Positions 36,512 through 56,001 of a stretch of 64,000 bases of DNA are shown here, in pieces. Position numbers and translations under genes: made by a program. Each line of letters starts with the position of its first letter. The first letter of the stretch is position 1. The notes beneath the pieces are model-generated. The model was not told where the DNA came from. It ran no database searches and saw only the letters and a list, made by a program, of their open reading frames with translations. Origin of the DNA: a virus; IMG/VR virus record IMGVR_UViG_3300042473_001368. One strand, given 5' to 3'.

Positions 36512-36691
36512 ATGAATATTGAAGATGACATAATTGATAATATCTGTGATGTTATATGTGATCGTATATGGACTGAGCTCTGGCAACTGACAACCGAGCA
36601 TATACAATTTGGCGTTACAGCTCACGCATCTGCTATATTAACAGCAGACTTTGCAATTGAACAAATTTCAAATAAATTAAAAGAACTATGA
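36512..36691 (+). CDS. MNIE-family small protein (isolated member)
   Basis: Starts ATGAATATTGAA (MNIEDDIIDNICDV...), 59 aa. Confidence 0.5.
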   Translation: MNIEDDIIDNICDVICDRIWTELWQLTTEHIQFGVTAHASAILTADFAIEQISNKLKEL

Positions 36692-37467
36692 AAGTACGAT
36701 TACTAACAAAAACTGAGGGCGCCAAGGGCACAGAATATGAAGGAAAAACTATTGATGAAATTATTGTTGGCATTGCCAGATGCAGCAGCAGTCGCGAGGC
36801 AAATGAGCTTTTCTCTGAGCCTCATAAGTTACTACGTCACTGCCTGAATCATAGCCACTGGAGTGTATTCGGTGAAGCCAATCTTGGCTTTGAAATTACA
36901 ACGAGTCGCGCTATTGGTCGAGAGCTGTTGCGTCACTGGAGTCTAGCTCCGCAGGAATTGAGTCAGCGTTATAAGAGCATCAGCGACTTTGAGCCAATTG
37001 AACTGCGCATGCAAAGCGCAGACAATCGTCAAAGCTCAACAGTGGTATTTGATCCGAGTCTCGATCCATATGATATGTTTGGACCAGTTCCAGCTAGCGG
37101 AGAAATAAATGCTCATCTTGATAGTATCAAAGTGCTCTATAATAAATTGCTAGAGGCTGGTGTTGCGCGTGAGTGTGCTCGCATGATCTTGCCTGAGACA
37201 ACTGAAACAGTGCTCATCTTTAATGGCAAGATTCGCGATTGGATTACAACTCTCAATCAACGCTTGCACAAAACAGCGCAAAAAGAATGTCGTTTAGTTG
37301 CTGAGGAGATTCGTGATATCTTTATTGCTGAGTGTCCAGTGATTAGCAAGATGCTCTACAACTTTGAGGATGCCTATAATTGTCATATCCTAGAGCGAGT
37401 GCTCCTGGAGAAGTATGGAGTCTATGGCATGGTCAAGGAGAATGGCTTCAAGAAACTTAAGAGTTGA
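36688..37467 (+). CDS. thyX: flavin-dependent thymidylate synthase
   Basis: HWSVF, I.TSRAI.RELLRH.S...QELSQRY, RECARMILP, QKE.R..A. Confidence 0.92.
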   Translation: MKVRLLTKTEGAKGTEYEGKTIDEIIVGIARCSSSREANELFSEPHKLLRHCLNHSHWSVFGEANLGFEITTSRAIGRELLRHWSLAPQELSQRYKSISDFEPIELRMQSADNRQSSTVVFDPSLDPYDMFGPVPASGEINAHLDSIKVLYNKLLEAGVARECARMILPETTETVLIFNGKIRDWITTLNQRLHKTAQKECRLVAEEIRDIFIAECPVISKMLYNFEDAYNCHILERVLLEKYGVYGMVKENGFKKLKS

Positions 37468-37497
37468 TCTCATAACGAACTCCGTTATAATTTGTGT

Positions 37498-37623
37498 ATG
37501 AGCCAGTACACAGCACGTGACTTAATCGCTCTTGGGTTTGATCCAAATGATCCACAATTCAAGAGCGATCTCGAAGTCGCCAAGAAAGCAAACTGCGCAA
37601 AATATGGTACTATTTCCTTGTGA
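37498..37623 (+). CDS. short paralogue of 38076-38408
   Basis: MSQYTARDLIALGFDPNDPQFKSDLEVAKKANC; ATG 6 nt after TATAAT. Confidence 0.5.
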   Translation: MSQYTARDLIALGFDPNDPQFKSDLEVAKKANCAKYGTISL

Positions 37624-37832
37624 GCAACCTCCAACAAAACGATGCCTATCAGCCAGTTAATTATGCCTATCTCTCTGGGGCCCTTCAAGGCGGCATGCAA
37701 ATGATCGCACGCGAACTTGTAATGGCTGGACTGCTGCAACACGATGATCTTGCAAAAGCAGAAGAAATTGTTGCTGCTATGATAACTCGCTGTGAAGCTA
37801 GTGAACGTGAATATTCAAAAACCAAAAACTAA
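37620..37832 (+). CDS. hypothetical protein, paralogue of 63658-63867
   Basis: Shared NY.YL.G.L and E.SER.Y. Confidence 0.65.
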   Translation: MSNLQQNDAYQPVNYAYLSGALQGGMQMIARELVMAGLLQHDDLAKAEEIVAAMITRCEASEREYSKTKN

Positions 37833-37837
37833 AACTT

Positions 37838-38071
37838 ATGAAAATTATATTTGAGAAAGAAGAAAATCAAGAAAAGCAATTGACACTTGCTGATGTCGAT
37901 CACAATCAATTCTTTGTGTGTGGGGATGGTTATCTGTGTCAAAAGATCACCGATTCCCGTTACACTACCATTGCTAAAAGCAACGGACAACTTTACAGCG
38001 ATATTTTTTCGTGTGATGCTCATTATCGAATCAAGCGCATTCTTCCTAAGATCGCGAAGATTGAATTTTGA
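37838..38071 (+). CDS. hypothetical protein, paralogue of 55181-55414
   Basis: Shared MKI.FEKE, NQFFVCGDG.LCQK, I.P.IAKIEF. Confidence 0.7.
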   Translation: MKIIFEKEENQEKQLTLADVDHNQFFVCGDGYLCQKITDSRYTTIAKSNGQLYSDIFSCDAHYRIKRILPKIAKIEF

Positions 38072-38075
38072 GACT

Positions 38076-38408
38076 ATGAACATCTATTCAGCAAGCGACT
38101 TGATCGCTCTTGGTTTTGATCCAAGTGATCCACACTTCAAGAGCGATCTCGAAGTCGCAAAGAAAGCAAACTGCAGTCGCAAAGAACTTGTTGATGTTAT
38201 CTTTGCAGCACGTCGAGAAGCAATAAAGACCTTTCATAGTGAGCCTCGCACCTACTCTTTCGATGAAGCAGTTGCTTATCTTAGAGGCTGGCTTTGGAGC
38301 GAGTCAAATCTAGAAGCGCTAACTCACAACGAAGTTTGTGCAATGTTCAAGAATGCTGCAGCGTGTGTTGAATGCGCGAATGATGGAATAGGAAATCGAC
38401 CAACTTAA
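38076..38408 (+). CDS. hypothetical protein
   Basis: MNIYSASDLIALGFDPSDPHFKSDLEVAKKANC. Confidence 0.6.
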   Translation: MNIYSASDLIALGFDPSDPHFKSDLEVAKKANCSRKELVDVIFAARREAIKTFHSEPRTYSFDEAVAYLRGWLWSESNLEALTHNEVCAMFKNAAACVECANDGIGNRPT

Positions 38409-38410
38409 TT

Positions 38411-38578
38411 ATGGCAAGCTCAGGAAAAGGTAAAGGCAGCGTAAAGACTGTTGAATGGTGGAAACATCTTCGTGATCGCAAACGCGCTCAAAATCGTTTG
38501 GTGCGAGAAGATGGCAAAGAACAGATTGAAACAGAATTAGAGGAAGCTGAAGAGGAGGGTGAAGATGAAGAATATTAA
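38411..38578 (+). CDS. small basic/acidic bipartite protein
   Basis: MASSGKGKG..EWWKHLR...EEEGEDEEY. Confidence 0.55.
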   Translation: MASSGKGKGSVKTVEWWKHLRDRKRAQNRLVREDGKEQIETELEEAEEEGEDEEY

Positions 38579-39175
38579 ACACGAAGCGTATAATTTTATA
38601 AGTGTTGCGGTATGGGACGCAGCAGCACATAGTGTAGAGCATGCTGTTGATAATTATGTAAGCGGACTTGCGTGGGGTAGTGCGTGGGACAGCATAAGCA
38701 ATACTATATGGGCTATTGATGATAGTTCAAGAGATACTGTTAACAATACGATAGGCGCCTATGAATATTGAAACTGAAATAAGTTACAATGTGTACTATT
38801 CAGTGCTGTTCTTGGTGCATAGCCCTGTGAGTGGCGCTGTGAATTGTTCTGTGGGTGTTTCTGTGTATAATACTGTGAGGGATGATGTGTGGAATTCAGT
38901 TAGTGATTCAGTTAGCAATGCAATAAAGGAATATGAATATTGAAACTATAACACATGCATCTTTTACAGAAGAAATTACTGAATTATGGGATGATGTTTG
39001 GAATTCAGTAATTTTTAGGACAAATTATAATTTGAATCGCGATGTTGCACTTAATATACGCAATCGTGTAAGTGAATTTGAAATAAGCCTTAGAGACGCT
39101 GGTCAATCTGAAGCTGGCGCATATAGTGGTGCGATGCACCGCACTAGACTAATAACAACAACCATTTTACAATAA
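38565..39175 (+). repeat. MNIE..YEY cassette cluster 1: ORFs 38565-38771, 38761-38943, 38933-39175
   Basis: ORFs joined by ATGAATATTGA stop/start overlaps; SVxx/AVxx tetrad pattern. Confidence 0.75.
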
Positions 39176-39199
39176 CGAACTACAATATAATAAAAACAT

Positions 39200-39586
39200 A
39201 TGGGACTTGACATGTACTTAACTTCGCGCTCAGAAAATGAGCGCGCTAAAGCAAATGATTATGCCGATTGGGCAGTGCTCGCCTATTGGCGCAAATTCAA
39301 TGCACTACACGCTTGGTTTGTGCGCAATGTGCAAGACGACGTAGATAACTGCGGCGATTATGTTGTGACACAATCTAAACTAAGTGAGCTTATAGGCGTT
39401 CTCAAGACGCTGCAGCAGACTCGCGATACAAGCTTGCTGCCAACACAAAGCGGCTTCTTTTTTGGAGATACTAATTACGACCAATGGTATTGGAGCAAGG
39501 TTGCCTCTGCTATTGATACACTATCTAAAATCTTAACAACCTTTGACTTTGAAAACGATGAACTTCTTTATACTTCAAGCTGGTAA
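39200..39586 (+). CDS. conserved phage protein (MGLDMYL family)
   Basis: MGLDMYL, YWRK.N.LH.WF, LPT.SGFFFG..YD.WY. Confidence 0.75.
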   Translation: MGLDMYLTSRSENERAKANDYADWAVLAYWRKFNALHAWFVRNVQDDVDNCGDYVVTQSKLSELIGVLKTLQQTRDTSLLPTQSGFFFGDTNYDQWYWSKVASAIDTLSKILTTFDFENDELLYTSSW

Positions 39587-39593
39587 CCCTCCT

Positions 39594-39800
39594 ATGGACA
39601 ATAAGATCGCTGCGATAATTTTTCTATGCAGTGCTGTATTGGTTGTAACACACATACTTTCCTATGCAGCTGGTGCTAATGCTGAGAGTCCAGGCGGTGG
39701 TGATGCACCAATAATGCTGCCATTCGTATTGGTTATGGTTGCTACAATCGCATCAACATTATTCTCTCTTATTATTATCTTAACAAACATCTTATCTTAA
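39594..39800 (+). CDS. small membrane protein
   Basis: Two hydrophobic helices. Confidence 0.55.
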   Translation: MDNKIAAIIFLCSAVLVVTHILSYAAGANAESPGGGDAPIMLPFVLVMVATIASTLFSLIIILTNILS

Positions 39801-39833
39801 AATAACTAAAAGGAACTACTGTATAATATAATT

Positions 39834-40385
39834 ATGACAAGAGAACTTGCAATTGAAATTGCGACTGCTGCACACGCTGGGCAAAAGCGTAAAAACAGCG
39901 GAGAAGATTATATCGCGCATCCTTTAAAGGTTGCTGAGAACGCAGAACGAATTTTTCGAGAAGAATATGCTGGTGATTTCTTCCCTGATGAAGTAGAAGT
40001 TATTGCAAGAAAAATCTATATTGTCGGTGTGCTGCACGATGTAATTGAAGATACTGAGGTCAATTTGGAAGCAATATCCAATGTCTTTCCCGATATTCAT
40101 ATTCTTCAAGCATTGGCTAAGCTTACTCGACATGAAGGTCAAACCTATTTTGATTTCATCAAAGAAGTTATCGACAATGGCAGCATAATTGCTAAGATTG
40201 TAAAGATTGCCGATATTCGGCACAATATGAGCGACTTGAAGGAAGGCTCTTTGAAAGATAAATATCGCTTTGCTTTGGATAAGCTAACTGATACTTCAAA
40301 AGAACGCAAAGACCTATTGCAGCGAATACAAGCATTAGAAGACGAAATTGATGATATGCATTATCAATCGCAAATGAATTTATAA
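39834..40385 (+). CDS. HD-domain (p)ppGpp hydrolase-like (SpoT/Mesh1 type)
   Basis: AH.GQ.RK.SG..YI.HP..VA, LHDVIEDT, VK.AD..HN. Confidence 0.82.
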   Translation: MTRELAIEIATAAHAGQKRKNSGEDYIAHPLKVAENAERIFREEYAGDFFPDEVEVIARKIYIVGVLHDVIEDTEVNLEAISNVFPDIHILQALAKLTRHEGQTYFDFIKEVIDNGSIIAKIVKIADIRHNMSDLKEGSLKDKYRFALDKLTDTSKERKDLLQRIQALEDEIDDMHYQSQMNL

Positions 40386-40396
40386 AAGAAACTACT

Positions 40397-40933
40397 ATGA
40401 AAATATTTTGGGACATTGACGAGACACTGATTCATTCTCGTGTTTACATTGACAGTAAACATAAGCACACATTCGTCGTTGACGTTTATGACGAACTCTA
40501 CTACACATGCGTGCGACCCTGCTCCAATGACTTGATTAACTATAGTCGAGAATTGGTTGGTGCAGATAATGTTTACATCTTAACTGCAGCGGCTGAGTTA
40601 TATGCGCAGCGTATTAGTAAGAAAGCTGATTGGGGCTTTGCCGAGGATCATATCATTGGTCGGGAAACTATTGAACGCTATAGCATTAATATCCCAAGTT
40701 TGTATGGCAGCAGCACGTATGTATCAGAGCATCCATTAGCTCATCCTGATAATGTCTTGATTGACAACTTGATGCCAGAGTGGAACAATGAAAAGACATC
40801 GTTGATGCGCATTAATCCTAAGACAAACTATTGCAAAGTTGATGATTATATAGGCTATAATTTGGAAGAAGACATCTTTAGAGATAATATTAAACACTTT
40901 TTGAAAACGAGATATGAGAACAAAACAATTTGA
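40397..40933 (+). CDS. HAD/NIF-family phosphatase
   Basis: DIDETLIH motif I, VRP, LTAA...YA, VLIDN. Confidence 0.75.
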   Translation: MKIFWDIDETLIHSRVYIDSKHKHTFVVDVYDELYYTCVRPCSNDLINYSRELVGADNVYILTAAAELYAQRISKKADWGFAEDHIIGRETIERYSINIPSLYGSSTYVSEHPLAHPDNVLIDNLMPEWNNEKTSLMRINPKTNYCKVDDYIGYNLEEDIFRDNIKHFLKTRYENKTI

Positions 40934-41210
40934 ATTGAGTAACGGTGACTTAGCTAATGGCGAGTCAATTGAAGAGATGATTAAAACTCTTGAGAGCCTT
41001 AACAAACGAGCAAAGGAGCTAGGAGCAATTGATACATCTGTCGATTTTTATCGAGGAGACTATGGCTATGTTGAAATTTCAGCAACCCGATACATGACAC
41101 CTGAAGAGGTAGCAAAAGCTGAAGCAGACGATGCAGTCAGAAACCAAAGACAGCTTGACTTTGAGCGTAGACAATACGAAGCTCTTAGAGCAAAATTCGA
41201 AAAGCAATAA
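40914..41210 (+). CDS. hypothetical protein
   Basis: 98 aa with YE.L..KFE C-terminus. Confidence 0.6.
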   Translation: MRTKQFELSNGDLANGESIEEMIKTLESLNKRAKELGAIDTSVDFYRGDYGYVEISATRYMTPEEVAKAEADDAVRNQRQLDFERRQYEALRAKFEKQ

Positions 41211-41444
41211 CGAACTCTAATATAATTAAGGACAGCAAATATGAAACTACTACAAAAAATTAAAAACGTATTCACTCGCCGTCAATCAGTTTATGGTGCT
41301 AAGATCTTTACGCAACGTTCTTGGCTCGATCGTCAAGTAGACGACGCAATCTATAAGCGCGAGATGATGCGCGGCGTTGGACCAGCTATCAAATAACAAA
41401 ACAGTTAATTGAAAACAAAACGAACTACATTATAATTAAAACAT

Positions 41445-42419
41445 ATGAAAGAGAAAATTACTCATATCACTGACGAACAAAAAGCAAAAATGCCACAGTA
41501 TGTGGATAGGTGGATCAAGACCGGTACTAATACTGATCGACTCGATCCAGTCCGTACCGCGAAGACAATTGAGAACTACCGTAAGCTTATTGGTAAGCCT
41601 GTTGATGTTCCTTTGATTATCCTCGATAACCCTCTTGAAGCGTGGGCGGCTTGCCATCTCCTTAGTAACTTCGGAGTGAGCTTTGAGAACCTTAATGCAG
41701 AGCTTGCAGAGGTTTTCAATGGTAACCCTAAAGGCTATGAGATTCCTCGTGCTCGACTGCCATGGCAATGCGGTTCGTTCTTTGTATCGACCTTCTCCTT
41801 CTATGACTATATGTTTGAAGAGCTGGGCGTTGAGATCGACGCAGAGCTTTACGCGAAGTATAAAGTCTGGGAATCGACTTCTGAGCTTGGCTGTATCTAT
41901 CCTTTGGATGAGTATACTATTGTCTCTCAGAAACCAACTGAGATTCATTTGAACGAAGCTCGTGTGCTGCATCGCGATGGTGGACCTGCTATTTCTTATG
42001 CTGGTATGGGTAACCTTAAGATCTATTGCTTGAATGGTGTTACTGTTCCAGAATATATCGCGGTGACTCCTGAAGAGAAACTCGATCTTGAATACTACAA
42101 GACTATCGAGAACGCTGACGTCAAAGCTGAGTTTGTTCGCAAAGCTGGCATTGAACGCTTCAAAGAACTTGGCAAATTGGTCGATGACTATACCAAGTAT
42201 GCTGGAGCCGAATATGAACTCTGGCAGAAGAGTCAATATGAAATCTGGGATATGAGCGCGATCTTCGATGGTCTCGACTATGCTCCTTATTTGATGATGA
42301 CAAATCTCACTACAGGTATTTATCATTTCGAGGGAGTTAGTCCAGCTTGTCGTACTCTTAAAGATGCAATCAAGGAACGCTTAGGCGGACGTGATCTTAT
42401 CATTAAAGCTATTGCGTAA
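41445..42419 (+). CDS. DUF6745-like protein
   Basis: KP.EIH....LH..GGPA..Y..G...Y..NGV.VP, NA.V.AE....GIER, TG..HFEGV.P.C.T...A. Confidence 0.65.
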   Translation: MKEKITHITDEQKAKMPQYVDRWIKTGTNTDRLDPVRTAKTIENYRKLIGKPVDVPLIILDNPLEAWAACHLLSNFGVSFENLNAELAEVFNGNPKGYEIPRARLPWQCGSFFVSTFSFYDYMFEELGVEIDAELYAKYKVWESTSELGCIYPLDEYTIVSQKPTEIHLNEARVLHRDGGPAISYAGMGNLKIYCLNGVTVPEYIAVTPEEKLDLEYYKTIENADVKAEFVRKAGIERFKELGKLVDDYTKYAGAEYELWQKSQYEIWDMSAIFDGLDYAPYLMMTNLTTGIYHFEGVSPACRTLKDAIKERLGGRDLIIKAIA

Positions 42420-43560
42420 GCTTTAGCTTTGATTCGAGAATAGCTTCGATATTGTCGAAATCATAGTATGGAATTCTAACGAGTTCGATATTATGGTCTC
42501 GACAATATCTGTTTTTGCGTTGGTCGCGTTCTTGCGTTTCTTCGAAGGCTTTTTCTCCACCAAAAAACTTGATAGGTTCGAAGTGTTGCTTACCGTCGAA
42601 TTCTATCATTAAGTTAAGAGAAGGTACAAAGAAATCAAAATAGTATCTATAGCTATCATCCTTAATATATTTTTGAATTTTGTATTCACAGTTTAAAGAG
42701 TTGAGATACTTTGAAATCCTCGTCTCGCCTTGAGAGTTGCAGCACGCGACACAACCACTACCTCTCAAATGCCCACCAGGCTTTTGTTGAAACTCGCCAT
42801 GAACAGGGCAGATAATATTGACGGGTGTAATACTGTTAATGTAATATACGTTTTCGTAATTGTAGAAATTATCATGAATTACGCTCGACCGCGCCACAAA
42901 ACTCTTTTGTAGTTTCTTGTTATTATTTGCTCGTACTCGTTCAATGTTGCACTCTTCGCAACCACCAAACCCTCTCGATAATATAGTAGCCTTTGTCTCA
43001 AAGTACTTGTTGTGCTCAAGACACTTTACCCGTACGGTAGATACACTGTTAGCGTACCCTGATTCGGAAAGATCAAACTTATTATCTCCCCAGACGCTCT
43101 TAATAATATTCTCCCATTCTACTTTCCGCTTCGCGTGATTAGATTCAGAATAATTTTTATTTGGTTTGCATTTTTTGCAACCTCTTCCTAATGTATAGTG
43201 CGCAGAGTATGGCATCTTAAATAACCCATGGTCAGGGCAGATTATATCAACAGGCGTATTAGCATTCTTATACACAACTTTCGAATAATCGTATCTATCG
43301 CCATGCTTGTCTCTAAACTTTCCTAAAACATAATCATGGCTATGAGTTATTGGCGCACTATTTTTAATCTTACCGCATGCCTGACAACCAAACCCTCTTA
43401 AATGAGCGCCTGCTCGTTGTTTAAATTCGCCATGCAAAGAACACACAGCTGTTATTATTGTATCGCTATTAACATAGTTGATGTTAACGTATTCATACAC
43501 GCCTTTATGTACTTTTGTTGCTTTTTCGATAAAGCTCTCGTTTGTATGTCTTACAGGCAT
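42409..43560 (-). mobile_element. homing endonuclease-like ORF: CxxHG zinc-ribbon repeats plus a DUF559/PD-(D/E)XK-like nuclease
   Basis: Repeated YDYSKV.Y....IICP.HG.F.....H..G.GC; C-terminal FDFF.....MIEFDG.QHF..D..K..YC....L.RI.Y. Confidence 0.78.
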
Positions 43561-43693
43561 ATAAATTATTTAGTCTACGCACCGTACTTTTCTACGATTA
43601 ACCGTAGATATCGTAACGAACTACTATATAATTAACTCGTAAGCATATGATGTGCTTGCATAATTTAACTCCTAGCCTATAATAAATACGAAT

Positions 43694-44038
43694 ATGAAAT
43701 TAAATCAAAATGAATGTGTGCTTCACGGTGAAGCAATGATTATGCCTGCTTCTCTTCCAGCTGATGCTGTAGAGATCAAGCCATCAAACGATAATTACCA
43801 CATTATCGCAGACAGTGAAACTACTGGCAACCACCATGTCATCGACACGGTTCCTGGTACTCGCTTCTTCAAGAGCGGTAGTCGTACCTTTATGACTAAC
43901 GAGAAAGAGACTCGTGTTCGCTGCGTGCATCCAGCTCGTCACAATGCGATTGCGTTGAGCCCTGGTACATATGAAGTTGGCGAGAATCAACTTGAGTATG
44001 ACCACTTCGCTCAGAACCTACGTAAGGTTCGCGACTAA
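43694..44038 (+). CDS. conserved partner of DUF6745-like proteins
   Basis: HGE..I, IA..ETTG.HH, H..I.L.PG.Y, EYD.F....R.V.D. Confidence 0.65.
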   Translation: MKLNQNECVLHGEAMIMPASLPADAVEIKPSNDNYHIIADSETTGNHHVIDTVPGTRFFKSGSRTFMTNEKETRVRCVHPARHNAIALSPGTYEVGENQLEYDHFAQNLRKVRD

Positions 44039-44061
44039 TATATTTGTAGTGTGTGTAGTAA

Positions 44062-44098
44062 ATAGGGGAGAGTCTTTCGGCTCTTCCCTTATTTTTTT
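44062..44098 (+). terminator. intrinsic terminator
   Basis: ggggagag-tctttcgg-ctcttccc followed by a T run. Confidence 0.75.
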
Positions 44099-44113
44099 GT
44101 AGAGAGCATAAAT

Positions 44114-45127
44114 ATGCTTATGCGTAGAAACGATTTCAAACAGTTAACAAGCCTCTATGAGAGCGTATATGTTGTTAGCGAAGCAAACTTAGCAGATGAC
44201 AAAACTCTTATGGCAGCTCTTGACGAGGCTTTAGGTGAAAAAGGTATTACTGGAAACTCTCCTATCGAAAAATGGTTTAAGACACAGTACCTTAAATGGT
44301 TCAAATCTCCTGAGGGCGATGATAAGAAAAATGTATCACAGCACCAATATGCTGAAGGCGAGCCAGAGTGGATGTCGAGAGAAGGTATTGTAGATTTCGG
44401 TGGCTTCTCGCAGAGTGAGAAGCAGAAACTTTCTCATATGATCGACTACTTCCTCGCGCTTGATGATAGAGAGATCGCAACGATTTACAAAGAACCATAC
44501 GGCGTCATCGTTAATAAGGTTGCTGAGTGGGATCGTAGATTAGCTAAGAAGATGGAGAAATCAGAAATCTCTCCGCTTGTCGAAGGCACTGACTTTAAAG
44601 TTATTCGTAAGACCCAAGACGAAACAGGAGCACCGATGAAGTGGGTTAAGCTTCTAACACCTGCAGCATTTAAGTTTGAAGGTAATTCAATGGGACACTG
44701 TGTAGGTGGTTATAACCCATCTAAGAAAGGTCTCGATATCATCTCTCTATATGATGAAGATAACTTGCCGCATGTTACTATCGAGATTCAAAACAAAGAA
44801 ATAAGACAGATTAAAGGTAAGCAAAACGCTGCCCCTACATCTACATATCAGCCGCCTTGCTACGAGTTTGTTAAATATCTTGTTGACAGAGATGGATACA
44901 AGGTTACTGGTGACGGTGATAACATTGGTATGGCGCATTTTGAAAGTGAGTATTACTTCCGCGATACACAAGAATGGCAAGATATCTTTACTAATAAGAT
45001 CGTGCCTATGCAACAGAGAGCGTTTGATGAAATCAAGAAGCGCATTAAAGTTATTGCTACAGAAGGCTATGAGTATGCTTCAAGCTATATGTATAACCTT
45101 CTCAAAGAAAAGCGCTCAATCTGGTAA
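44114..45127 (+). CDS. PcfJ-like domain protein
   Basis: EG..MGHCVGGY, I.SL.D....PHVTIEI, QIKGK.N; CATAAATA late promoter. Confidence 0.7.
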   Translation: MLMRRNDFKQLTSLYESVYVVSEANLADDKTLMAALDEALGEKGITGNSPIEKWFKTQYLKWFKSPEGDDKKNVSQHQYAEGEPEWMSREGIVDFGGFSQSEKQKLSHMIDYFLALDDREIATIYKEPYGVIVNKVAEWDRRLAKKMEKSEISPLVEGTDFKVIRKTQDETGAPMKWVKLLTPAAFKFEGNSMGHCVGGYNPSKKGLDIISLYDEDNLPHVTIEIQNKEIRQIKGKQNAAPTSTYQPPCYEFVKYLVDRDGYKVTGDGDNIGMAHFESEYYFRDTQEWQDIFTNKIVPMQQRAFDEIKKRIKVIATEGYEYASSYMYNLLKEKRSIW

Positions 45128-45129
45128 AC

Positions 45130-45753: not shown

Positions 45754-46273
45754 GAAAGTTATAGAAGGGAATGTAGATCTCAGTGATATTTGGGTGGACG
45801 AGCTTCCAGATTTCCTCGCTGTTGATGAGCTACAAGGCAATCTTAGAATTGATCAATATAAATACCCTTCACTTAGATCTCTTAAAAACTCTCCGATCTT
45901 GGTAAACGGTACAGTAGTAATCAATTCTACCAATATTAGAGATCTTCAAGGGTCACCTCAAATGATATTAGGCAATTTTGAACTAGATGCAAACACGGAG
46001 CTAGCTTCTCTCAAAGGTGCACCTCGTTATATCGCAGGTATTTTTTCTGTGCAGTTTTCTGAGCAGCTTAGATCTTTGGATCATGGATGGCCTGAGAAGG
46101 TTAAAGTGGGTAGAGGGTTCCAATTGCACTATTCTGGAGAAATGGATGCGTTTAGAGTAGATGATGTACTCAAATATTACGATGTTGATCCTAAGGATAT
46201 CTTTATAAACGACGCATACGAGGATCCAGATATGTATGACCTGGAAGATGGAGAGTACATTAACGAGTTGTAG
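45746..46273 (+). CDS. divergent LRR paralogue
   Basis: Same MSKK.IEG.V.L N-terminus, SLKGAP repeats. Confidence 0.72.
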   Translation: MSKKVIEGNVDLSDIWVDELPDFLAVDELQGNLRIDQYKYPSLRSLKNSPILVNGTVVINSTNIRDLQGSPQMILGNFELDANTELASLKGAPRYIAGIFSVQFSEQLRSLDHGWPEKVKVGRGFQLHYSGEMDAFRVDDVLKYYDVDPKDIFINDAYEDPDMYDLEDGEYINEL

Positions 46274-46367
46274 TTGAACTCTATGTGAACTACTCTATAA
46301 TATCTTTATGAATGCTGAAGGAGACCCTGGGAATGCCAAGGTCTCTTGAAGTTTATGAAGATAGGTA

Positions 46368-49054
46368 GTGATGAGAGAAGAAACATTAGAATCCAAGAGA
46401 CGCGGCATAAGTGAAGCTAATATTGTGACGAGTGATCTTATATTAGCCACTCTTCGGACAGACAGTGAATGGCTTGCAAATGTCTTAAGTGAAATGGTTA
46501 GCGGTGTAACGCAATATACACGGCTAGCAGGAAGCGAGCTACAAAATCATATAGCGCAGACACTGCAAAATTATTATGAATATGGCAAATAGAGAGCTAC
46601 AGGAAGAAGTAATTAGTAACAGCATAATCACAGCAATTATAGCAGATATGGATGCTCTTGCCGCAGAGCATCCTGACGAGTCACTTGTGATTCACAATAT
46701 TTTTATACCAGTTAACAATCAGGTCGGCTCAAGATTTCTAGCAGAAATTGAAGATAAAGTCTGGAACTATAGATATGGAAGACCTAAAGTTAAATAAGCG
46801 GCCACGGACTACTGAGTTTGAATCGTTTTATGATATGGTTCGCGCCGTACGTGATAACCTCTCCTGCGATCTCGACGACCCTAATTGGTGGCAAGATGTA
46901 TACACACTTTCGCAAATTGAGGCTGGTGTGCATAAAGTTACAGGTGCTATACGGTGGGAGCTTTCCTTAGATAAAACGAACTAGCGTATAATAGATATAC
47001 ACTGCAGGACTATGCATATTAATATTTACGACGAACTACTTACTCGCTGCGGAAACTCTGTGTATAGTTCTATATGGTGGCCTGTAGCAACCAACGTAAG
47101 AGATAAAATTCCTTCGGAAATGTGGGATTTTTATAAAACTACTATTATACGAGATGGTACAACTGGCTCATTAAGCAGAGAAGTAGATAATGAGGTAGGA
47201 AATTATGAATATTGAAACTATAATTGATTGTGATATCGGTCACAGATGTCGTACTGCATTTCGTCAAGAGCTTGAGAATATTTGCAAGGTCAACTTTGAT
47301 GGCCATGAGTATTACGGCCTTTATATTGAGCTGACATATGATATTGACACAGTTACTGACAGCCTATATTTTAATTTTGAAGACACCGCAGATAGCTATT
47401 ACTATGATTGATTTAGGTGAAGAGATAAGATACAAGATACAACTCTCAGCTCGTGACGCGATTACTTCAAAATTGATAGCAGTTAAGCATATGACATTTT
47501 CTGGTTATGGCATGGCTGATGATGAGATGTGGAATGAGATTATCTCGCCAATGACACGTCTTGCTACTGAGCTAAAGGTATGGGGAGAGATTGGACGATA
47601 TGAATATTGAACGCAAAATATATTATGACCCATGCAACTATAGTTGGGGTGATATACAAACAAACGCATTAAAACAAATTCGTAATACAAGAAGCATCGA
47701 GGATATCATGGTTGTGGTCTCGGGTGTTGAAGAGCTATGCGATGAAGTGAGAATGCAAAGCACGCTTGAACTTTTCATTGCTAATCACAATCCTGGTAAT
47801 ATACTAACAACAGAAAATGAAGAAGAACATCCACGGTGAGATTGAAGGCGAGTTGATGGATAATACTCAAGATGCATTATGCGAATTGAGAAGCAGTGTA
47901 TTTGGCAATGGCACATATATGAATAATCCCGTTCATATGCACTATCACGATACAATAAACAATCAGCTATTTCTACAAACAGTATGCACCATTAAACAAA
48001 AGCTTAATGCAGAATTTTTCAGTAGAGACATTGAAGGCATAGCAAAAATTATGAAACAAGCGCATGAAAGATTACAACGACCGCGTATTAGCAGAAGAAA
48101 TCGCTGATTTCGATAAATTCAGAAAAATCACTACAGCGATCTATAGTGCTTGGAACGATAGAGCAGATTATCGTGTATCTAATGCTGTGCTTGTAGGGGT
48201 ATTTGATGGTGTGAATCCGATACAACTTCTTTCATGCGTTGGTGCTAGTCTGAAATATTATGAATATTGAAAGTAAAATAGATTTTCATATGTGGGCTTC
48301 AATTCGAGGCCGTCTGCGCGACTCTTTGGAGAGTTTCATTGACCGGGATGTTGATTATTATGCTCAGCACGATGTGATCGATGAAGTCTTTGAGCCTGTG
48401 TGTCAATCTGCTGATGACAGTGTGAAGAATAGTGTGAGAACAGCAATAGAAGAATATGAATATTGAAAAGAAAATAGTTGATTCTGTGGTGGATGCTGCG
48501 TGCAATTCTGTGTATGGTGCTGTGTATACCAATGTATGTAATTCTGTATCTACTAATGCTAGACATCTCGGTTGGTTTTCTGTATATAGTGCTGTGTGGA
48601 ATCCAGTAGAAGATACTGTTAGTAGCAAAATAAACGAATATGAATACTGAAAAGGAAATATATGACTCAGTTCATGGCTCAGTTTGGAGCTCGGTTTATA
48701 GCTCAGTTCATGGCTCAGTTATTAACTCAGTTCATGACTCAGTTCATGGTTCAGTTTATGGCTCAGTTTATATCTCAGTTTATGACTCAATTTATGGCTC
48801 AATTGACAATGCAATAAACGGATATGAATATTAAAAACGAATTAACAAACTCATGCAATAGTGTGTCAATGAAAGTAGAATTAGATCTTTATAATAGCGT
48901 AAGTAATTGCGCTACACTTACATCAGTGACAACTGTTAAGCTTGCTCTTGTGCATGATCTTTGCAAGGTAATGAATTATGCATCGCCGATTAGTGTAAAA
49001 CACGCTGTAGATAGTGAAATAGAACAATATAGATACAATGCAATTGGGTCCTGA
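46368..49054 (+). repeat. MNIE..YEY cassette cluster 2: about 12 overlapping 60-100 aa ORFs (e.g. 46576, 46775, 47012, 47205, 47404, 47600, 47817, 48064, 48260, 48456, 48640, 48824)
   Basis: Junctions ATGAATA(T/C)T(G/A)A at 47205, 47600, 48260, 48456, 48640, 48824. Confidence 0.75.
48640..48834 (+). CDS. SVxx tetrapeptide-repeat small protein
   Basis: 12 tandem 12-bp units (NNC)TCAGTT(NNN). Confidence 0.75.
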   Translation: MNTEKEIYDSVHGSVWSSVYSSVHGSVINSVHDSVHGSVYGSVYISVYDSIYGSIDNAINGYEY

Positions 49055-49075
49055 AAGACTAAATAGAGCTATAAG

Positions 49076-50569
49076 ATGAAGCCATTCAGAGATTATTTTC
49101 GTAACTATATTATTCTTAACGAATTCACGCAAGCAACTATTGATAAGCTCGTGAAGAAGTTCGAGAAGGATGCTCCTAAAGAAGAAATAGAGCGCGAACT
49201 AAGAGACTTTGAGAAGTATAAAACCAGTCTCGAGCTTAAAGATCCATTCCAATACAAGACATGGGTAGACTTAACACAAGCTGTTCATGGCGCCAAAGGT
49301 AAATCGCAATTCAAAAAGAAAAAGCCACAGAAGCAAGGCGAATCAAAGTATCAAGACAAAGGTACAGATATCCTTGCAGAGGATGATAATGTAATCATCT
49401 ATAGCGGTGACACGCAAGACAAGTGCGTTCTATTAGGGAATGGCTATCCATTCTGTATCTCTAGACCAGTTGGTGGTAATATGTTCAATGACTATAGATT
49501 AACAAAAGAATCGTCGTTCTATTTCATCTTCTTCAAGAATAAGCCAAGAAGTGCGAGAGACCATATTATGGTATTGGATCACACAGCCAATGGCTATGAG
49601 TGGACCTTTGCTGAGAATGATACACAGAAGGTAAGAGGAGGTTGGGATACAATTATAGACAGGTATCCAGAACTAGAACCATACGAAGATCTCTTTGAAC
49701 AACGACCTCTTACAAAAGAAGAGTACGACTTAAGTAGAAGAATCGATATGTTTACAAGCTTCGGTAACCAAAATCCAGAAGAGTTTGAAAGAGCCTTCAA
49801 GTATGAAGAGCGACCTACTGCGTTGAAGCAGATGTTTTCTCTGATGAATGATAAGTTGTGGAATTCTTTGGATTCATTTTTAAGAAATGAGTTCTTAGGT
49901 ACAGGCCCTAACCTTACAAAACATATGATTGACTCTCTAAAACCAAATGAGAGAGAATATTATAAGAAGAGACGCGATCTTATTATGACTCAGACACTAG
50001 GACGTTTGGATCCTGATGATCCTGATTCAGCAGATGTAATATACAATATCGAAGTAAACGAGCTTGATTCTGATCAAACAATTGATTTTCTACTCGAACA
50101 CGACTCAGGCCAGGAACTTATCTATAACTATCTCATGAAGAAGGTGCAGCATGGCGCATCATATAAAGACCTTCCTGAAGGTATTATTTACGAGCTATTG
50201 ATATCGAAAAGATTTGGCTACAATACCGCACGCTATATTGTTGGCTTGAAGAATCTCGACGCGGATATGTTAGACAGCGTATTCGATAATATAGACTCTG
50301 CTGATGCCACAGCATATGCAACAGAGATACTAAAAGGTAAAAATATACCAGCTAAGCTCATTGATAAGATAAAACAAACTAGGTATGGTGTATCGAGCTT
50401 TGCTGATTATTATAAGAAAGTACTTAACCTACCGGCATCTGAACTACCACCGTTGCTATTGCAGTATGCAATGCGCGATGCTAAGGTAGCGGAGGAGATC
50501 TACGCTGTATATGGCGGTAAGGGGCTTCCAGAAGGTATAGTAAACCGCGTAAAAAGTTATCATTACTAA
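49076..50569 (+). CDS. 497-aa hypothetical late protein inserted in the cassette array
   Basis: TAAATA upstream, terminator downstream, MKPFRDYF...LNE N-terminus. Confidence 0.75.
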   Translation: MKPFRDYFRNYIILNEFTQATIDKLVKKFEKDAPKEEIERELRDFEKYKTSLELKDPFQYKTWVDLTQAVHGAKGKSQFKKKKPQKQGESKYQDKGTDILAEDDNVIIYSGDTQDKCVLLGNGYPFCISRPVGGNMFNDYRLTKESSFYFIFFKNKPRSARDHIMVLDHTANGYEWTFAENDTQKVRGGWDTIIDRYPELEPYEDLFEQRPLTKEEYDLSRRIDMFTSFGNQNPEEFERAFKYEERPTALKQMFSLMNDKLWNSLDSFLRNEFLGTGPNLTKHMIDSLKPNEREYYKKRRDLIMTQTLGRLDPDDPDSADVIYNIEVNELDSDQTIDFLLEHDSGQELIYNYLMKKVQHGASYKDLPEGIIYELLISKRFGYNTARYIVGLKNLDADMLDSVFDNIDSADATAYATEILKGKNIPAKLIDKIKQTRYGVSSFADYYKKVLNLPASELPPLLLQYAMRDAKVAEEIYAVYGGKGLPEGIVNRVKSYHY

Positions 50570-50588
50570 GGGAGTCAAATAGTGAGAT

Positions 50589-50625
50589 AAAGAGAGCCTA
50601 TAGAAATATAGGCTCTTTTCTTTTT
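50589..50625 (+). terminator. intrinsic terminator
   Basis: agagcctata-gaaa-tataggctct plus T run. Confidence 0.85.
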
Positions 50626-50840
50626 AACGAACTAGTGTATAATATAATGAAGGGGTATGTATAATAAAATTGACAAGGTAGCAGAGATGATAGAATCTCC
50701 GCCATATTCTCAGGTGAGATCTTGTGTTTTTAGTTGCATAGATGGTGCTGTAAAACAGGATGCGTGGCATTATGTAGTTGCTAACACGCATAACGCAACA
50801 TTCTCTGTAAGAGCTTCTGTTTACGAATCAATTAGGGAAT

Positions 50841-51059
50841 ATGAATATTGAAAAGAAAATAGATGTTTCAGTTTGGAGCTCAGTTTGGGGCTCAGTTTAT
50901 AGCTCGGTTAATGGCTCAGTTAGGAGCTCAGTTTGGACCTCAGTTTGGACCTCAGTTGATAGCTCAGTTAATAACTCAGTTTATGACTCAGTTATTAACT
51001 CAGTTTGGGACTCAGTTTGGAGCTCAGTTGATAATACAATAAAGGAATATGAATATTGA
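50841..51059 (+). CDS. SVxx tetrapeptide-repeat small protein
   Basis: 14 tandem TCAGTT-containing 12-bp units. Confidence 0.75.
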   Translation: MNIEKKIDVSVWSSVWGSVYSSVNGSVRSSVWTSVWTSVDSSVNNSVYDSVINSVWDSVWSSVDNTIKEYEY

Positions 51060-52052
51060 AAAGGAACTAAGGGATAATATTGCGAGATATGTAAATCATG
51101 CTGTGTATATTTCAGTATATAGTCGTATATACGACTCAGCGCCTGAAGTTGAAACAGATGTATATTTTAGGGTACGACTTTCTGTAGGCGATATAGTGAC
51201 GAGTTCGCTCAAGGGTAATACATCAACGCATATTGAAAACTATAGCTATAAGAAGTAAAATGAGCGCACCAGTAGAATATATTGTTGGGAACTGTACCTA
51301 TGGTATTATTGATAATGTAGTATATAATCAAATAATAGTAATATGTGGAGACGCTATTGAGAGAGATCCTTCTATTGTTATTTGGGAGGAGTTCTATAAA
51401 AGTGTGAACGACTCTACAAGTGGCAGTTTACGTAGAACTATTGCTACTAACATTATCAACTATGAATATTAAAAATGAGGTATATGACGATGTATGTCTT
51501 AATGTAGATTACCCTTTGCGGGAAGAGCTAGGTGATTTTTTGTTAGGTTGTGTAAGCAGTGCCGCGTATAACTCTGCGTGGTATTCGTTGTGGGAGTCTT
51601 TACGAGATCCAACAATCAGTCCGCAGAGTTGTACCGATGATGTAGTAGGTGAATATGAATATTGATAGCGAAATACACTATAATGTACGAGACACGGTAA
51701 GGTCTTCTGTAGGCCATGCACTTTGGGATTCTGTGAGCGATATTATTACTCTCCATGTTACATGCTCATTGAGTGCTCCTCTGAGGAATAAGGTTGATGA
51801 TATTGTAAGCGTTGTAAGTGATACTGTATACACAGCAATATATGAAACAAATGAATATTGAAAAGGAAATATGGGAGAGAGCGTGCGAGGGCGAGTGGCA
51901 TTCAGTATCTCAGACTGTGTGGAAAGCTACTCTTCGTAATAATCTAATGGCTAATTGTTTGGTGTCAGAAACTGTACGAAGTGTTGAGTATGCAGTGCGA
52001 GATTCTTTGCAGTCTTCTGTAGAGCAAGCTGTTGATAATACAATAAAGGAAT

Positions 52053-52247
52053 ATGGATATTGAAAAGGAAATAGATCGCTCAGTTGGTGTTACAGTTTTT
52101 GACTCAGTTAGTGTCTCAGTTTGGAGCTCGGTTTATAGCTCAGTTCATGGCTCAGTTTGGAACTCGGTTAGTAACTCAATTTATGGCTCAGTTGGCGTCT
52201 CAGTTTGGGACTCAGTTGATGATACAATAGCAGGATATGAATATTGA
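52053..52247 (+). CDS. SVxx tetrapeptide-repeat small protein
   Basis: 12 tandem 12-bp units. Confidence 0.75.
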   Translation: MDIEKEIDRSVGVTVFDSVSVSVWSSVYSSVHGSVWNSVSNSIYGSVGVSVWDSVDDTIAGYEY

Positions 52248-52431
52248 AAAGGAAATAGATGACTCAGTTTATGACTCAGTTTATGACTCAGTTTGCGACT
52301 CAGTTAGTGACTCAGTTGGTGCCTCAGTTCATGGCTCAGTTATTAACTCAGTTCGTAGCTCAGTTTGGGGCTCAGTTCATATCTCAGTTAGGAACTCAGT
52401 TGATAATACAATAAAGGAATATGAATATTGA
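52237..52431 (+). CDS. SVxx tetrapeptide-repeat small protein
   Basis: 12 tandem 12-bp units. Confidence 0.75.
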   Translation: MNIEKEIDDSVYDSVYDSVCDSVSDSVGASVHGSVINSVRSSVWGSVHISVRNSVDNTIKEYEY

Positions 52432-54292
52432 AACGGAGATAAAAGAAATTACAAGAAATTCCGTGTTTATGAGTGTATATTGCAAGATACACTCGTGTGC
52501 TCATAGTAATATAGCTAAACAAGTTTTACAAGACACTTACATACTGAGTCAAAGGGTGTATGATAGCGCACGGGTAACTGCTATAAAAACCGAAGAACAC
52601 AAAAACAATATAAATGAAAGATATTAACCTCATTGTAGACTTCCGTATATCTAGTAAAGAACACATTGCAACATTAACTATAGCACGCTCTATAGAAAAC
52701 GCTGTCGAGTATGGTGTATGGTCGAGTGCGTGGATAGGAGTAAAAGCACCTGTGCGTGATACTGTAGGCGAATTTTCGACTGTAATAGATCCATTTCTAC
52801 GCCCTAGAGCTGTTAAAACCGTACAATTTTAGTGTAAAAGATTGTAAAAATAACCAAAAGTTTTTACAAAAGTTTTATGAAATAATGCGCATGAAGTTAT
52901 AATAAGCCTATAAAGCTCAAAGGAAAAGGAAGATATATGGAAAGAGGAAATATAGAAATATAAGGAACCAGGATAAAATATATTGAATGAAGGGAGCGAA
53001 ATATGGATATTGCAATAGAAATATTGTATCGTGAGTTCGAAAACAGCATTGAATGGCGTACCGGTATATTCGAAAATTTAGAAAGAAATACAGAGCGTGA
53101 AATAATAAATTATGTGCAAAGCAATAGTTGGTATAATTCAGAAACATCACAACTCACACGAGATCTAAAAGAAAAAATATATGCCGCGTTTTGATAATGA
53201 AGAAGAATGGTTCAAAGCGTGGAGTACTTTGAATGGTGCATGCGCAGTTCAATTGCATAAGTGTATTCATGACTCGATGACGCTCATGACGAGAAACAAT
53301 ATAAAAGTTAATGTGCAGAATACTGTAGGGAGAATTACGAATACTATAAAATATGGACACTCTGAGAAATACCAAGATTAACAACTATGGAACCGTTTAA
53401 AACACCTTACTTTGATTCACCATTTTACGCGTTGTACGATATCAATAACACTATGGAAAGAGAAATATACGCTATCCTCGATACAAAGGTATCATTCATA
53501 GTGCGCTTAACAGTACTTGATAATGTTAGATTTATGCTATCACGTCCGCACGATAGCATTCATAATAGTATACACGACGCTATGCACGAATACTTTAAAA
53601 CCACCACGGCAAAATAATTTACACGACGCGCTGAGAGCAACCTCGTGCTATAACGAACTATAATATAACGAGTGATATGAAAGAACTATATGATTACTGT
53701 GGGTATACTATGTACGATACAATGAGCAAAAGCTTGCTTGAGAGTACTGGTAGCGCTGCGTGGTATGATGTAAGAGATGATGTGTATACTTCTGTGCTAG
53801 ATGTAATGCGACGCACTGTGGAGAATACTGTAGCAAGCGCGATTTATGAATATGAATATTGAAGGGCATTTATATGATATAACCCGGCGCAAAACCTATA
53901 TCAATATAGTCGACCAGCTTTTCGATAAAATATCGAAACCTGTGTTTAGTAGAGTAACAGACGACACTTGGACGCAAGTAGAGATTCCAGTAGGTAACGT
54001 AGTATGGAGCCAGTTGTATGATAATATAGCAAGCACACTTTATGAATACAAGTACTGATATAAAGCAAATCTTAGTTGGTCCAAGCAGCGAGGTATGCGA
54101 CGCAACATGGAACACCCTTTGCACCTCTTTGAATGTCGAGTCTCTCAAAAAGATTGGTAGTGCTTACGAATCAAAAAAAGCGGTAATTGGCGGCGTAAAT
54201 GCAGGGGTGGTTCGGGAGTTGGAAGGAATCCGGAGAATGGGTTTCAGTGTGGACGAGGTTATTGATAACGAACCTCAGTATAATATAGGAGT

Positions 54293-54586
54293 ATGAGTGA
54301 TGTAATGTTACACGGTGTGCTGAATATGTCGCCTGAATTGTGGAGCGATAGTCCTATTGATATCGCTCAGAGACACGCGCGATATGTAGAAGCTTCGAAG
54401 CGTATTTTAGAACTCGAGGAAGATGCCGCGAACCAGCGCAGACTTGCAGACTTAGCGCTAGCGCACAGAGATATAATCATCAAGGAACGCGATACACTGG
54501 AGACAGCTCTTAAAGAAATAAAAATGTATCAGTATTTGATTATGCCACAATGCCAGAAGAAGCTCGAAGAAAATATCGCGAGATAG
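54293..54586 (+). CDS. hypothetical protein
   Basis: 97 aa after an early promoter. Confidence 0.6.
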   Translation: MSDVMLHGVLNMSPELWSDSPIDIAQRHARYVEASKRILELEEDAANQRRLADLALAHRDIIIKERDTLETALKEIKMYQYLIMPQCQKKLEENIAR

Positions 54587-54900: not shown

Positions 54901-55155
54901 ATGAACATGACTTACTGTATGTGGCACAACACGAATCAAGACCTGCAACAACTCGTTAATGACCTGCAGGACGCTCTTGATGAAGGTATTCCTTTGAGTG
55001 CGTATATCGAGGAACGCGGCTCTGTTGATGAACGCTATGCAATCAAAGGAGTGCGTAGAAAATGTCAAGAGCTCTTAGATATCCTTGGCACTATGGAATC
55101 TATCGAAGAAGAGCTTATGGAGGACACTGTGACCTTCAACGAATCCAACGACTAA
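54901..55155 (+). CDS. hypothetical protein, paralogue of 55443-55688
   Basis: Y.MW.NT...L.QL, DEG..L..YI..R.S..ER.A. Confidence 0.7.
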   Translation: MNMTYCMWHNTNQDLQQLVNDLQDALDEGIPLSAYIEERGSVDERYAIKGVRRKCQELLDILGTMESIEEELMEDTVTFNESND

Positions 55156-55180
55156 ACGAACCTCGGTATAATATAGGAGT

Positions 55181-55899: not shown

Positions 55900-56001
55900 A
55901 AGTGTGTGGTGTAATGGTAGCACAACCCAAGCAAAGGGCTTCTTGTCCGATAGGATAGGTGGAGTTTCATCGAGGCGCAGGTTCGATTCCTGCCACACTT
56001 A
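55900..56001 (+). ncRNA. tRNA-scaffold RNA with a branched centre
   Basis: aagtgtg/cacactt acceptor, TGGTGTAATGGTAGCAC D arm, gcagg-TTCGATT-cctgc T arm; ~50-nt branched centre. Confidence 0.65.

Follow-up and report, generated by a model that had tools for sequence, protein, structure and literature searches.

Within a 64,000-nucleotide (nt) stretch of viral DNA, taken from IMG/VR record IMGVR_UViG_3300042473_001368 and referred to in full as the window, we analyzed arrays of very small genes, here called cassettes, which overlap in a junction that is read in two frames. The initial annotation of this DNA knew of no described system with such a design; the cassettes proved to share homology with the tetrapeptide tract located inside DUF6745 proteins. 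The same phage encodes a DUF6745 protein devoid of this tract. On balance, we consider it probable that the arrays represent a split DUF6745, in which the tract has been detached as about 24 stand-alone genes and the resulting mini-proteins complete the repeat-less core. The arrangement is undescribed in the literature searched.

Junction Motif and Cassette Family

With at most one mismatch allowed, the motif ATGAATATTGA was found 18 times in the window, always on the + strand (14 exact matches and four with one mismatch), compared to 3.4 times on average and at most 9 times in shuffled sequence. These are exactly the 18 positions listed in the initial annotation. The 11-nt junction reads TAT GAA TAT TGA (Y-E-Y-stop) in the first frame and ATG AAT ATT GA (M-N-I-E) in the overlapping frame. 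The dual-coding interpretation proposed earlier holds; exactly 11 nt are shared by 15 successive cassette pairs and 14 nt by one further pair. The annotated lack of an upstream cassette at 36512 was likewise reproduced, the preceding open reading frame (ORF) stopping at 36502 and leaving no overlap. In members rich in Ser-Val (S-V), conservation of the junction exceeds 11 nt and corresponds roughly to GATAATACAATAAAGGAATATGAATATTGAAAAGGAAATAGAT.

To count the family, 15 core ORFs were combined into a cassette profile, which was run over all six frames (threshold E < 0.01). It returned 24 members, all on the + strand and all inside 36512–54058, with one member at 36.5 kb, three at 38.6–39.2 kb, seven at 47.0–49.05 kb, 11 at 50.66–52.83 kb, and two at 53.68–54.06 kb. 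About ten more small ORFs in the chains (e.g., 47205, 47338, 47817, 53003, 53181, and 54042) gave no significant profile match. The previously stated number of about 30 micro-ORFs therefore describes the chain, while the family comprises 24. The existence of both the junction and the gene family is confirmed. The DUF6745 gene and the family members are given below, together with E-values from the profile hidden Markov model (HMM), ratios of nonsynonymous to synonymous substitutions (dN/dS), and the occurrence in related sequences (L005, L008, L009, and L015).

41445–42419, + strand: repeat-less DUF6745 core, 324 amino acids (aa), predicted docking scaffold (PF20530, phrog_31813)
36512–36691, + strand: isolated cassette, divergent, 59 aa, starts with MNIE but lacks a YEY end (HMM E 6.5e-06; orthologue in L005)
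38565–38771, + strand: cluster A cassette 1, 68 aa (HMM E 6e-23)
38761–38943, + strand: cluster A cassette 2, 60 aa, missing from L015 as an exact 172-nt unit (HMM E 4e-20)
38933–39175, + strand: cluster A cassette 3, 80 aa, starts with MNIE, tail divergent (HMM E 0.008)
47012–47215, + strand: array B cassette, 67 aa, missing from L008 (HMM E 1.4e-22)
47600–47839, + strand: array B cassette, 79 aa, divergent, starts with MNIE (HMM E 0.0015; orthologues in L008 and L005)
48064–48270, + strand: array B cassette, 68 aa (HMM E 5e-18)
48260–48466, + strand: array B cassette, 68 aa (HMM E 7e-23; identical protein P0003 in five other samples)
48456–48650, + strand: array B cassette, 64 aa (HMM E 3e-24)
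48640–48834, + strand: array B cassette, 64 aa, 12-nt repeats (Tandem Repeats Finder, TRF, period 12), missing from L008 (HMM E 1e-24)
48824–49054, + strand: array B cassette, 76 aa (HMM E 9e-07)
50657–50851, + strand: array C first (anchor) cassette, 64 aa (HMM E 9e-22; orthologues in L008 and L009)
50841–51059, + strand: array C cassette, 72 aa, 12-nt repeats, missing from L008 (HMM E 2e-26)
51049–51258, + strand: array C cassette, 69 aa (HMM E 3e-12)
51260–51472, + strand: array C cassette, 70 aa (HMM E 6e-07)
51462–51665, + strand: array C cassette, 67 aa (HMM E 3e-22; dN/dS 0.18–0.31)
51655–51861, + strand: array C cassette, 68 aa (HMM E 3e-10)
51851–52063, + strand: array C cassette, 70 aa (HMM E 4e-24)
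52053–52247, + strand: array C cassette, 64 aa, 12-nt repeats, within a higher-order tandem repeat of 184 nt (HMM E 6e-25)
52237–52431, + strand: array C cassette, 64 aa, used for folding and docking (HMM E 5e-28)
52421–52627, + strand: array C end-anchor cassette, 68 aa (HMM E 1e-07; orthologue in L009)
52614–52832, + strand: array C last member, 72 aa, overlaps the cassette before it by 14 nt (HMM E 6e-05)
53677–53862, + strand: array D cassette, 61 aa (HMM E 8e-21)
53852–54058, + strand: array D cassette, 68 aa, ends with YEYKY (HMM E 2e-22)

The cassette frame is free of in-frame stops over 1,654 codons, and the other five frames contain 66–219 stops. The conserved Ser-Val pair is encoded by TCAGTT in the window, TCTGTG in L008, TCTGTT in L006, TCAGTA in L013, and AGTGTA in L014. 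Since Ser-Val is kept through different codons, selection acts on the protein and not on a DNA motif. A non-coding DNA repeat was ruled out by the integrity of the frame and the codon-level evidence. Rfam and tRNA scans gave no match inside the arrays, and a comparison of ten cassettes to Pfam and PHROGs yielded sub-threshold noise only and no family.

Cassette products follow the consensus MNIEKEI-(x-S-V-x)n-xTIKEYEY and comprise 59–80 aa in the window. The tetrad pattern described initially was recovered, with S in 55% at position 2 and V in 68% at position 3. Positions 1 (D/N/S/G) and 4 (W/Y/R/S) are variable, which is reflected by an entropy of 3.5 and 3.8 bits, respectively, versus 2.6 and 1.9 bits at positions 2 and 3. 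Lengths are divisible by four residues in 28 of the 33 aligned cassettes (60, 64, 68, 72, 80, and 92 aa). Furthermore, four cassettes retain recognizable 12-nt tandem repeats, and cassettes 52053 and 52237 constitute a 184-nt tandem duplication with 80% identity. Little S-V periodicity is kept in members 48260, 51462, 48064, and 50657. The 33-cassette alignment was used for an AlphaFold2 model of cassette 52237, which shows a single helix from residue 3 to 63 with a mean predicted local distance difference test score (pLDDT) of 91; high confidence in a lone long helix is weak evidence by itself.

Relation to DUF6745 Proteins

The cassette profile was searched against 1.84 billion cluster representatives and gave 2,123 matches. 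The best of them are mostly proteins of 400–600 aa with several matched stretches (E 2.7e-44 to 1e-30). Five of the ten best (P0029–P0033) were scanned, and PF20530 is present in these, C-terminal to the matched tract. The three proteins whose sequences were read (P0029, P0030, and P0032) consist of an N-domain of ~80 aa, a tract of ~40–80 (D/N)SV(W/R/...) tetrads, and the DUF6745 domain. Such an internal tract is common in the DUF6745 family and lies outside the Pfam definition. The three proteins and the DUF6745 protein of Microcystis phage LMM01 share the x-S-V-x tetrad of the cassettes, in which S-V is conserved and positions 1 and 4 vary. However, their tract is internal to one polypeptide, whereas here the core is tractless and about 24 separate genes have conserved ends and each an ATG and a stop of its own, which separates them from the DUF6745 polypeptide.

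The DUF6745 gene of the window is located 4.6 kb upstream of the main array. Its product was recognized by PF20530 (32.9 bits compared to a cut-off of 27, E 4.9e-08) and phrog_31813 (E 1.1e-06). Residues 4–78 and 117–312 align with residues 6–79 and 295–486 of P0030, and residues 79–116 form a non-repetitive linker of 38 aa where P0030 has its tetrad tract of ~195 aa. We found 244 close metagenome homologues of this core; the 120 listed have a length of 308–360 aa, nearly all of them with PF20530, which indicates that the repeat-less form is widespread. The AlphaFold2 model of the core reached a pLDDT of 92, and its best match in BFVD is the LMM01 protein mentioned above (E 8.4e-18). In the ESM Atlas, the core matched a DUF6745 cluster (template modeling (TM) score 0.75/0.82 over 292 residues); the matches comprise a viral cluster and one from Cyanobacteriota, whose DUF6745 domain is joined to leucine-rich repeats. 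Among solved structures, the best Foldseek match had an E-value of 0.22 and the best VIA-align match a Z-score of 4.7 (root-mean-square deviation 5.6, 76 residues), no higher than noise for helical models. A literature search for DUF6745 returned no paper on the family.

Repeat-less cores come with cassettes in three of three loci, i.e., 24 cassettes in the window, 16 in L011, and nine in L012, counted over the 64-kb window and, in L011 and L012, over ~10 kb to each side of the gene. The cores of L011 and L012 are 77% and 58% identical to that of the window, respectively. In contrast, both tract-bearing loci (L013 and L014) are without free cassettes in their flanks. The cassettes of L012 directly flank the core gene, and their junction ATGAATTTAAATAA encodes YEFK-stop and MNLNN; given this different but analogous dual-coding junction, the design is older than the lineage of the window. 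Judged from these sequence comparisons, the cassettes are probably detached, diversifying copies of the DUF6745 repeat, a more specific interpretation that replaces the generic idea of a decoy library, which was not supported in its original form.

Gain and Loss of Cassettes among Relatives

Gene order is unchanged in near-identical contigs from four other samples and in a fifth, for which the gene list was compared. L015, a strain with 96% identity, lacks exactly one unit of 172 nt, corresponding to cassette 38761–38943. The remaining cassette is chimeric and combines the body of 38565 with the tail of 38761, which places the crossover in the conserved 3′ end and junction. L008, whose flanks have 88–94% nucleotide identity, differs from the window by five unit-sized indels: window cassettes 47012, 48640, and 50841 are missing, and three extra cassettes are present, two in one insertion (L008 2445–2808) and one at 3383–3589. 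The three L008 deletions were aligned base by base and have their breakpoints at the junction repeat. Between the anchor cassettes MYNKIDKV... and MNIETEIKEITRN..., nine cassettes are found in the window and three in L009, and L008 harbors at least ten after the first anchor before the contig ends. The anchors themselves hold their position across relatives. A fixed order without variation was thus not observed across the relatives compared. The one-unit loss in L015, the L008 indels, and the different cassette sets between the anchors agree with the gene accordion that had been proposed, with units added or lost at the junction, and this comparison at three evolutionary distances supports gain and loss of cassettes at the junction.

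For orthologous cassettes, the pooled dN/dS is 0.70 (range 0.18–1.13, with several cassettes at 0.9–1.1), compared to 0.14–0.24 in five neighboring control genes. With middles at a dN/dS of ~0.7 and unchanged ends, the previously noted combination of divergent middles and fixed ends also applies to orthologues.

Promoter-Like Motifs and Putative Transcription Units

The promoter-like motif AACGAAC-N5-TATAAT occurs at 59 sites in the window (4803–63883), all on the + strand, where ~3 are expected. Exact or near-exact copies precede the DUF6745 gene and the first cassette of arrays B, C, and D. No exact copy is located within any cassette array, and one copy heads each of arrays B–D. The sites concerned and a terminator-like hairpin are as follows.

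41419–41436, + strand: promoter-like motif AACGAAC-N5-TATAAT, exact, 9 nt before the DUF6745 start codon, best sigma-70-like site (11/12)
46975–46992, + strand: promoter-like motif, head of array B, exact match
50590–50619, + strand: terminator-like hairpin closing the array B unit, 13-pair stem followed by a T-run
50626–50643, + strand: promoter-like motif, head of array C, exact match
53652–53669, + strand: promoter-like motif, head of array D, one mismatch

The hairpin at 50590–50619 follows the gene for a 497-aa protein, the last gene of the array B unit. Inside the arrays, no terminator-like hairpin was found. The arrays also contain no copy of the T4-type late promoter TATAAATA and hence show no sign of late expression. 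We infer that each array forms one polycistronic unit with a promoter class common to the DUF6745 gene, which makes it plausible that the start/stop overlaps couple translation.

Predicted Docking on the DUF6745 Core

For the complex of core and cassette, one prediction was made from our own alignments of the DUF6745 core and the cassettes, with cassette 52237 as partner. The interaction prediction score from aligned errors (ipSAE) was 0.86, 0.84, and 0.88 in three runs, and the best of three controls reached 0.00. The partner had a pLDDT of at least 87, and at least 70% of the contacts were common to the runs. In the calibration of the complex tool, 58 of 80 solved complexes and two of 110 mismatched pairs reached the mark, counts that apply only roughly to a prediction from our own alignments. 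Contacts in the first half of the modeled helix are made at S-V residues 14–16, 18–19, 22–23, 26–27, 30–31, and 34–35, skipping tetrad positions 1 and 4; the second half of the helix is enclosed, as is the IKEYEY end. On the core side, the contacts involve helices 16–27, 63–75, and 111–125, which flank the insertion point of the tract in relatives and include the invariant residues N62, P63, E65, W67, F117, and Y120. The complex model supports the predicted binding and fits a cassette product with a docking face and a variable exposed face.

The initial annotation had suggested a library of generic binders or decoys against host defense proteins. According to the complex model, the partner that can be tested most specifically is the DUF6745 core of the phage itself, and the homology to the tract and the nearby repeat-less DUF6745 gene likewise argue for this core rather than a host defense protein.

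Proposed Mechanism and Alternative Explanations

In many phages, DUF6745 is a single polypeptide that comprises an N-domain, a long hypervariable x-S-V-x tract, and a C-domain. If the arrays are a split form of such a protein, the tract would have been lost from the gene of this phage and would instead be encoded by the ~24 separate genes for products of 59–80 aa. Each product would form one long helix, with the S-V stripe and the MNIEKEI and IKEYEY ends as docking face and tetrad positions 1 and 4 as variable exposed face. Each array would be transcribed as one unit from AACGAAC-N5-TATAAT, the 11-nt overlaps probably coupling translation. As the comparison of relatives shows, the conserved part of the junction, 20–45 nt in length, acts as a direct repeat, and recombination or slippage deletes or duplicates whole units between two copies of it; within a unit, 12-nt slippage shifts helix length in steps of four residues. 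The mini-proteins are predicted to bind the core one at a time, which would provide one scaffold with many surface variants. Their purpose may be the recognition of variable host or rival-phage targets, e.g., defense proteins, by analogy with gp54 of phage Tweety (see below). Taken in full, i.e., a DUF6745 core completed in trans by any of dozens of diversifying helices, a junction that both couples translation and drives shuffling, and target recognition in phage–host or phage–phage conflict, this is a tentative proposal, which we regard as possible rather than probable. Completion in trans, if true, would amount to non-enzymatic protein diversification without reverse transcriptase or integrase.

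Several points weigh against this interpretation. The case for binding consists of one model with one cassette, and the controls for docking were unrelated proteins and included no other amphipathic helices. Moreover, the model may seat the helix where the homologous internal tract lies in relatives, which would reflect likeness and not binding by this copy. The match between cassettes and DUF6745 tracts could partly be explained by the low-complexity composition with a period of four, which may inflate the scores. The complementary distribution of cassettes and tracts is based on three versus two loci with short flanks. The arrays are not adjacent to the core gene but 2.5–12 kb away, with several unrelated genes in between. 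The dN/dS values near 1 in several cassettes are also compatible with weak constraint, and the fold of the core matched no solved structure and therefore offers no functional lead.

Some of these observations would also suit an independent family of fast-evolving early genes with a role in host takeover or anti-defense, whose products act by themselves, e.g., as helices that self-associate or bind host proteins, do not bind the core, and whose x-S-V-x pattern stems from common origin or convergence. The distance to the DUF6745 gene, the high dN/dS, and the four members with little S-V periodicity are in line with such a family, as are the plasticity of the accessory region that houses the arrays in this T4-like genome and the promoter-like motifs of their own. 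However, the cassette profile matches DUF6745 tracts specifically and strongly, cassettes are present at all three repeat-less loci and at neither of the two tract-bearing ones, and the complex model passes its controls and places conserved residues at the interface. We therefore consider an independent family unlikely, albeit credible. A runaway tandem amplification of a gene fragment, which persists by duplication at the junction repeats and yields products with little or no function, would account for the dN/dS of 0.9–1.1 in several cassettes, the recent 184-nt tandem duplication, the 12-nt repeats, and the turnover of units between close strains. It is rendered improbable by frames that are intact in 24 cassettes and in relatives, by constraint on some cassettes (dN/dS 0.18–0.31), and by the conserved position of the anchor cassettes. 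In addition, L012 keeps start, stop, and end motifs despite a different junction sequence, and S-V survives synonymous and TCN/AGY codon changes.

Conserved ends around hypervariable cores, Ser-rich with some Cys, and an invariant final Tyr would also be expected from a library of precursors similar to ribosomally synthesized and post-translationally modified peptides (RiPPs), in which a maturation enzyme would recognize the ends; an uncharacterized 497-aa protein is indeed embedded between the arrays. Against this, the twenty-odd larger ORFs scanned, among them several family-less neighbors, revealed no radical-SAM, lanthionine synthetase, YcaO, protease, or transporter family, and neither the confident single-helix model nor the match to an internal tract of a folded protein family suits a RiPP. 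We regard this explanation as very improbable.

Comparison with Known Systems

The closest analogue that has been studied is the accessory protein gp54 of mycobacteriophage Tweety, which contains 40–48 A-A-x-x tetrapeptides between unique end regions (PMC2884959, PMC9262239). Changes in its repeat number allow Tweety to escape the Phrann gp29/gp30 defense, and the protein, which is grouped with Che8 gp57 and PMC gp51, is non-essential and encoded in a plastic region (PMC2884959, PMC9262239). Like the cassettes, gp54 is an accessory tetrapeptide repeat with 12-nt units and variation at two of four positions, and the repeat number differs between relatives, which in the cassettes applies to length in four-residue steps and to cassette number. 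Unlike the cassettes, gp54 has A-A-x-x instead of x-S-V-x and keeps the repeat inside one protein. We could not find any Pfam match for gp54 (L010:145–1266) at E-values up to 1 and hence no link to DUF6745; gp54 and the cassettes were compared by repeat type rather than by direct alignment, and the relation is one of analogous design, not of membership. A counter-defense role of the cassettes is suggested by this analogy only.

For the shuffling, the closest known mechanism is that of PeSL (early promoter/stem-loop) elements, which are intergenic and occur one per gene; within plastic parts of T4-like genomes, these short conserved repeats flank small accessory genes and are sites of gene-sized indels or swaps between close relatives. 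Two reports describe them as mobile promoter/stem-loop (terminator) cassettes of T4-type phages (PMC2839356, PMC4122927). The arrays resemble PeSLs in their gene-sized indels between close relatives, which are bounded by a repeat, and the window has a promoter repeat of that general kind in the 59 copies of AACGAAC-N5-TATAAT. The difference is that the cassette repeat is coding on both sides and that there is one promoter-like motif per array.

Downstream of the arrays, from 54.2 kb on, nearly every small gene has its own AACGAAC-N5-TATAAT, a PeSL-like layout with one promoter per gene. The promoter-like motif is dual-coding as well at 54263–54296, where GATAACGAACCTCAGTATAATATAGGAGTATGA encodes the C-terminus of the upstream protein (...NEPQYNIGV-stop) and the start codon of the next gene overlaps the upstream stop in its last four bases, ATGA. 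A second gene with an end encoded by the promoter motif (EPRYNIGV) is located at 55151–55184.

DUF6745 is a very large phage family, with more than 2,000 cluster representatives matched by the cassette profile alone. If the split form works as modeled, a scaffold gene and an expandable library of helices would provide a simple genomic route to many versions of one complex, with library junctions that double as translational links and recombination sites. This would add a diversity-generating principle to diversity-generating retroelements, shufflons, and PeSL shuffling. A practical way of finding out what DUF6745 does would open up as well, with the cassette ends as a docking tag and the variable face indicating what is recognized. 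Should the products counter host defenses, the arrays would represent a ready catalogue of specificities.

Host and Genomic Setting

ThyX (36688–37467) shares 66–68% identity with its counterparts in phages of Anabaena, Nostoc, and Dolichospermum, which hints at a cyanobacterial, possibly filamentous, host. The large, uncultured T4-like phage is probably a freshwater cyanophage. In an INPHARED search, neither the DNA of 47000–54300 nor the DUF6745 core, the 497-aa protein, or a cassette protein had a match, and only ThyX matched (67% identity to Anabaena/Nostoc phages). A literature search on cyanophage multigene families returned nothing relevant. The identical cassette protein P0003 is encoded on contigs of up to 190 kb.

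The gene separating arrays B and C was characterized as follows.

49076–50569, + strand: conserved gene encoding 497 aa between arrays B and C, no Pfam or PHROG match, 94% nucleotide identity to L008, dN/dS 0.20

It occupies the same position in L008, and its product ends with SYHY, i.e., Y-x-Y. Regarding the neighborhood of the DUF6745 gene, a gene of the zinc-ribbon/DUF723/PvuRts1I-like homing-endonuclease type (42409–43560, − strand) overlaps its 3′ end, and L011 likewise has a minus-strand DUF723 gene directly after DUF6745. Just upstream, at 39834–40933, an HD-domain phosphohydrolase (weak, sub-threshold match to HD_4, SpoT/alarmone-hydrolase type) and a NIF-type phosphatase are encoded, which may matter if the region handles alarmone-based defenses, as in Tweety and Phrann. 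Two leucine-rich-repeat-like proteins are encoded between the DUF6745 gene and array B (45130–46273).

Further features of the window include a tRNA gene cluster at 13044–20629 with 28 tRNAs identified by ARAGORN and a few more by Rfam, and a tRNA gene at 55900–56001 that either contains an intron-sized insertion or has a long variable region. Finally, we identified two pairs of small paralogues, 37838–38071 and 55181–55414 (MKI[IV]FEKE...IAKIEF) as well as 37492–37623 and ~38090–38408 (...DLIALGFDP.DP.FKSDLEVAKKANC...), indicating that gene duplication in the accessory region extends beyond the cassette family.

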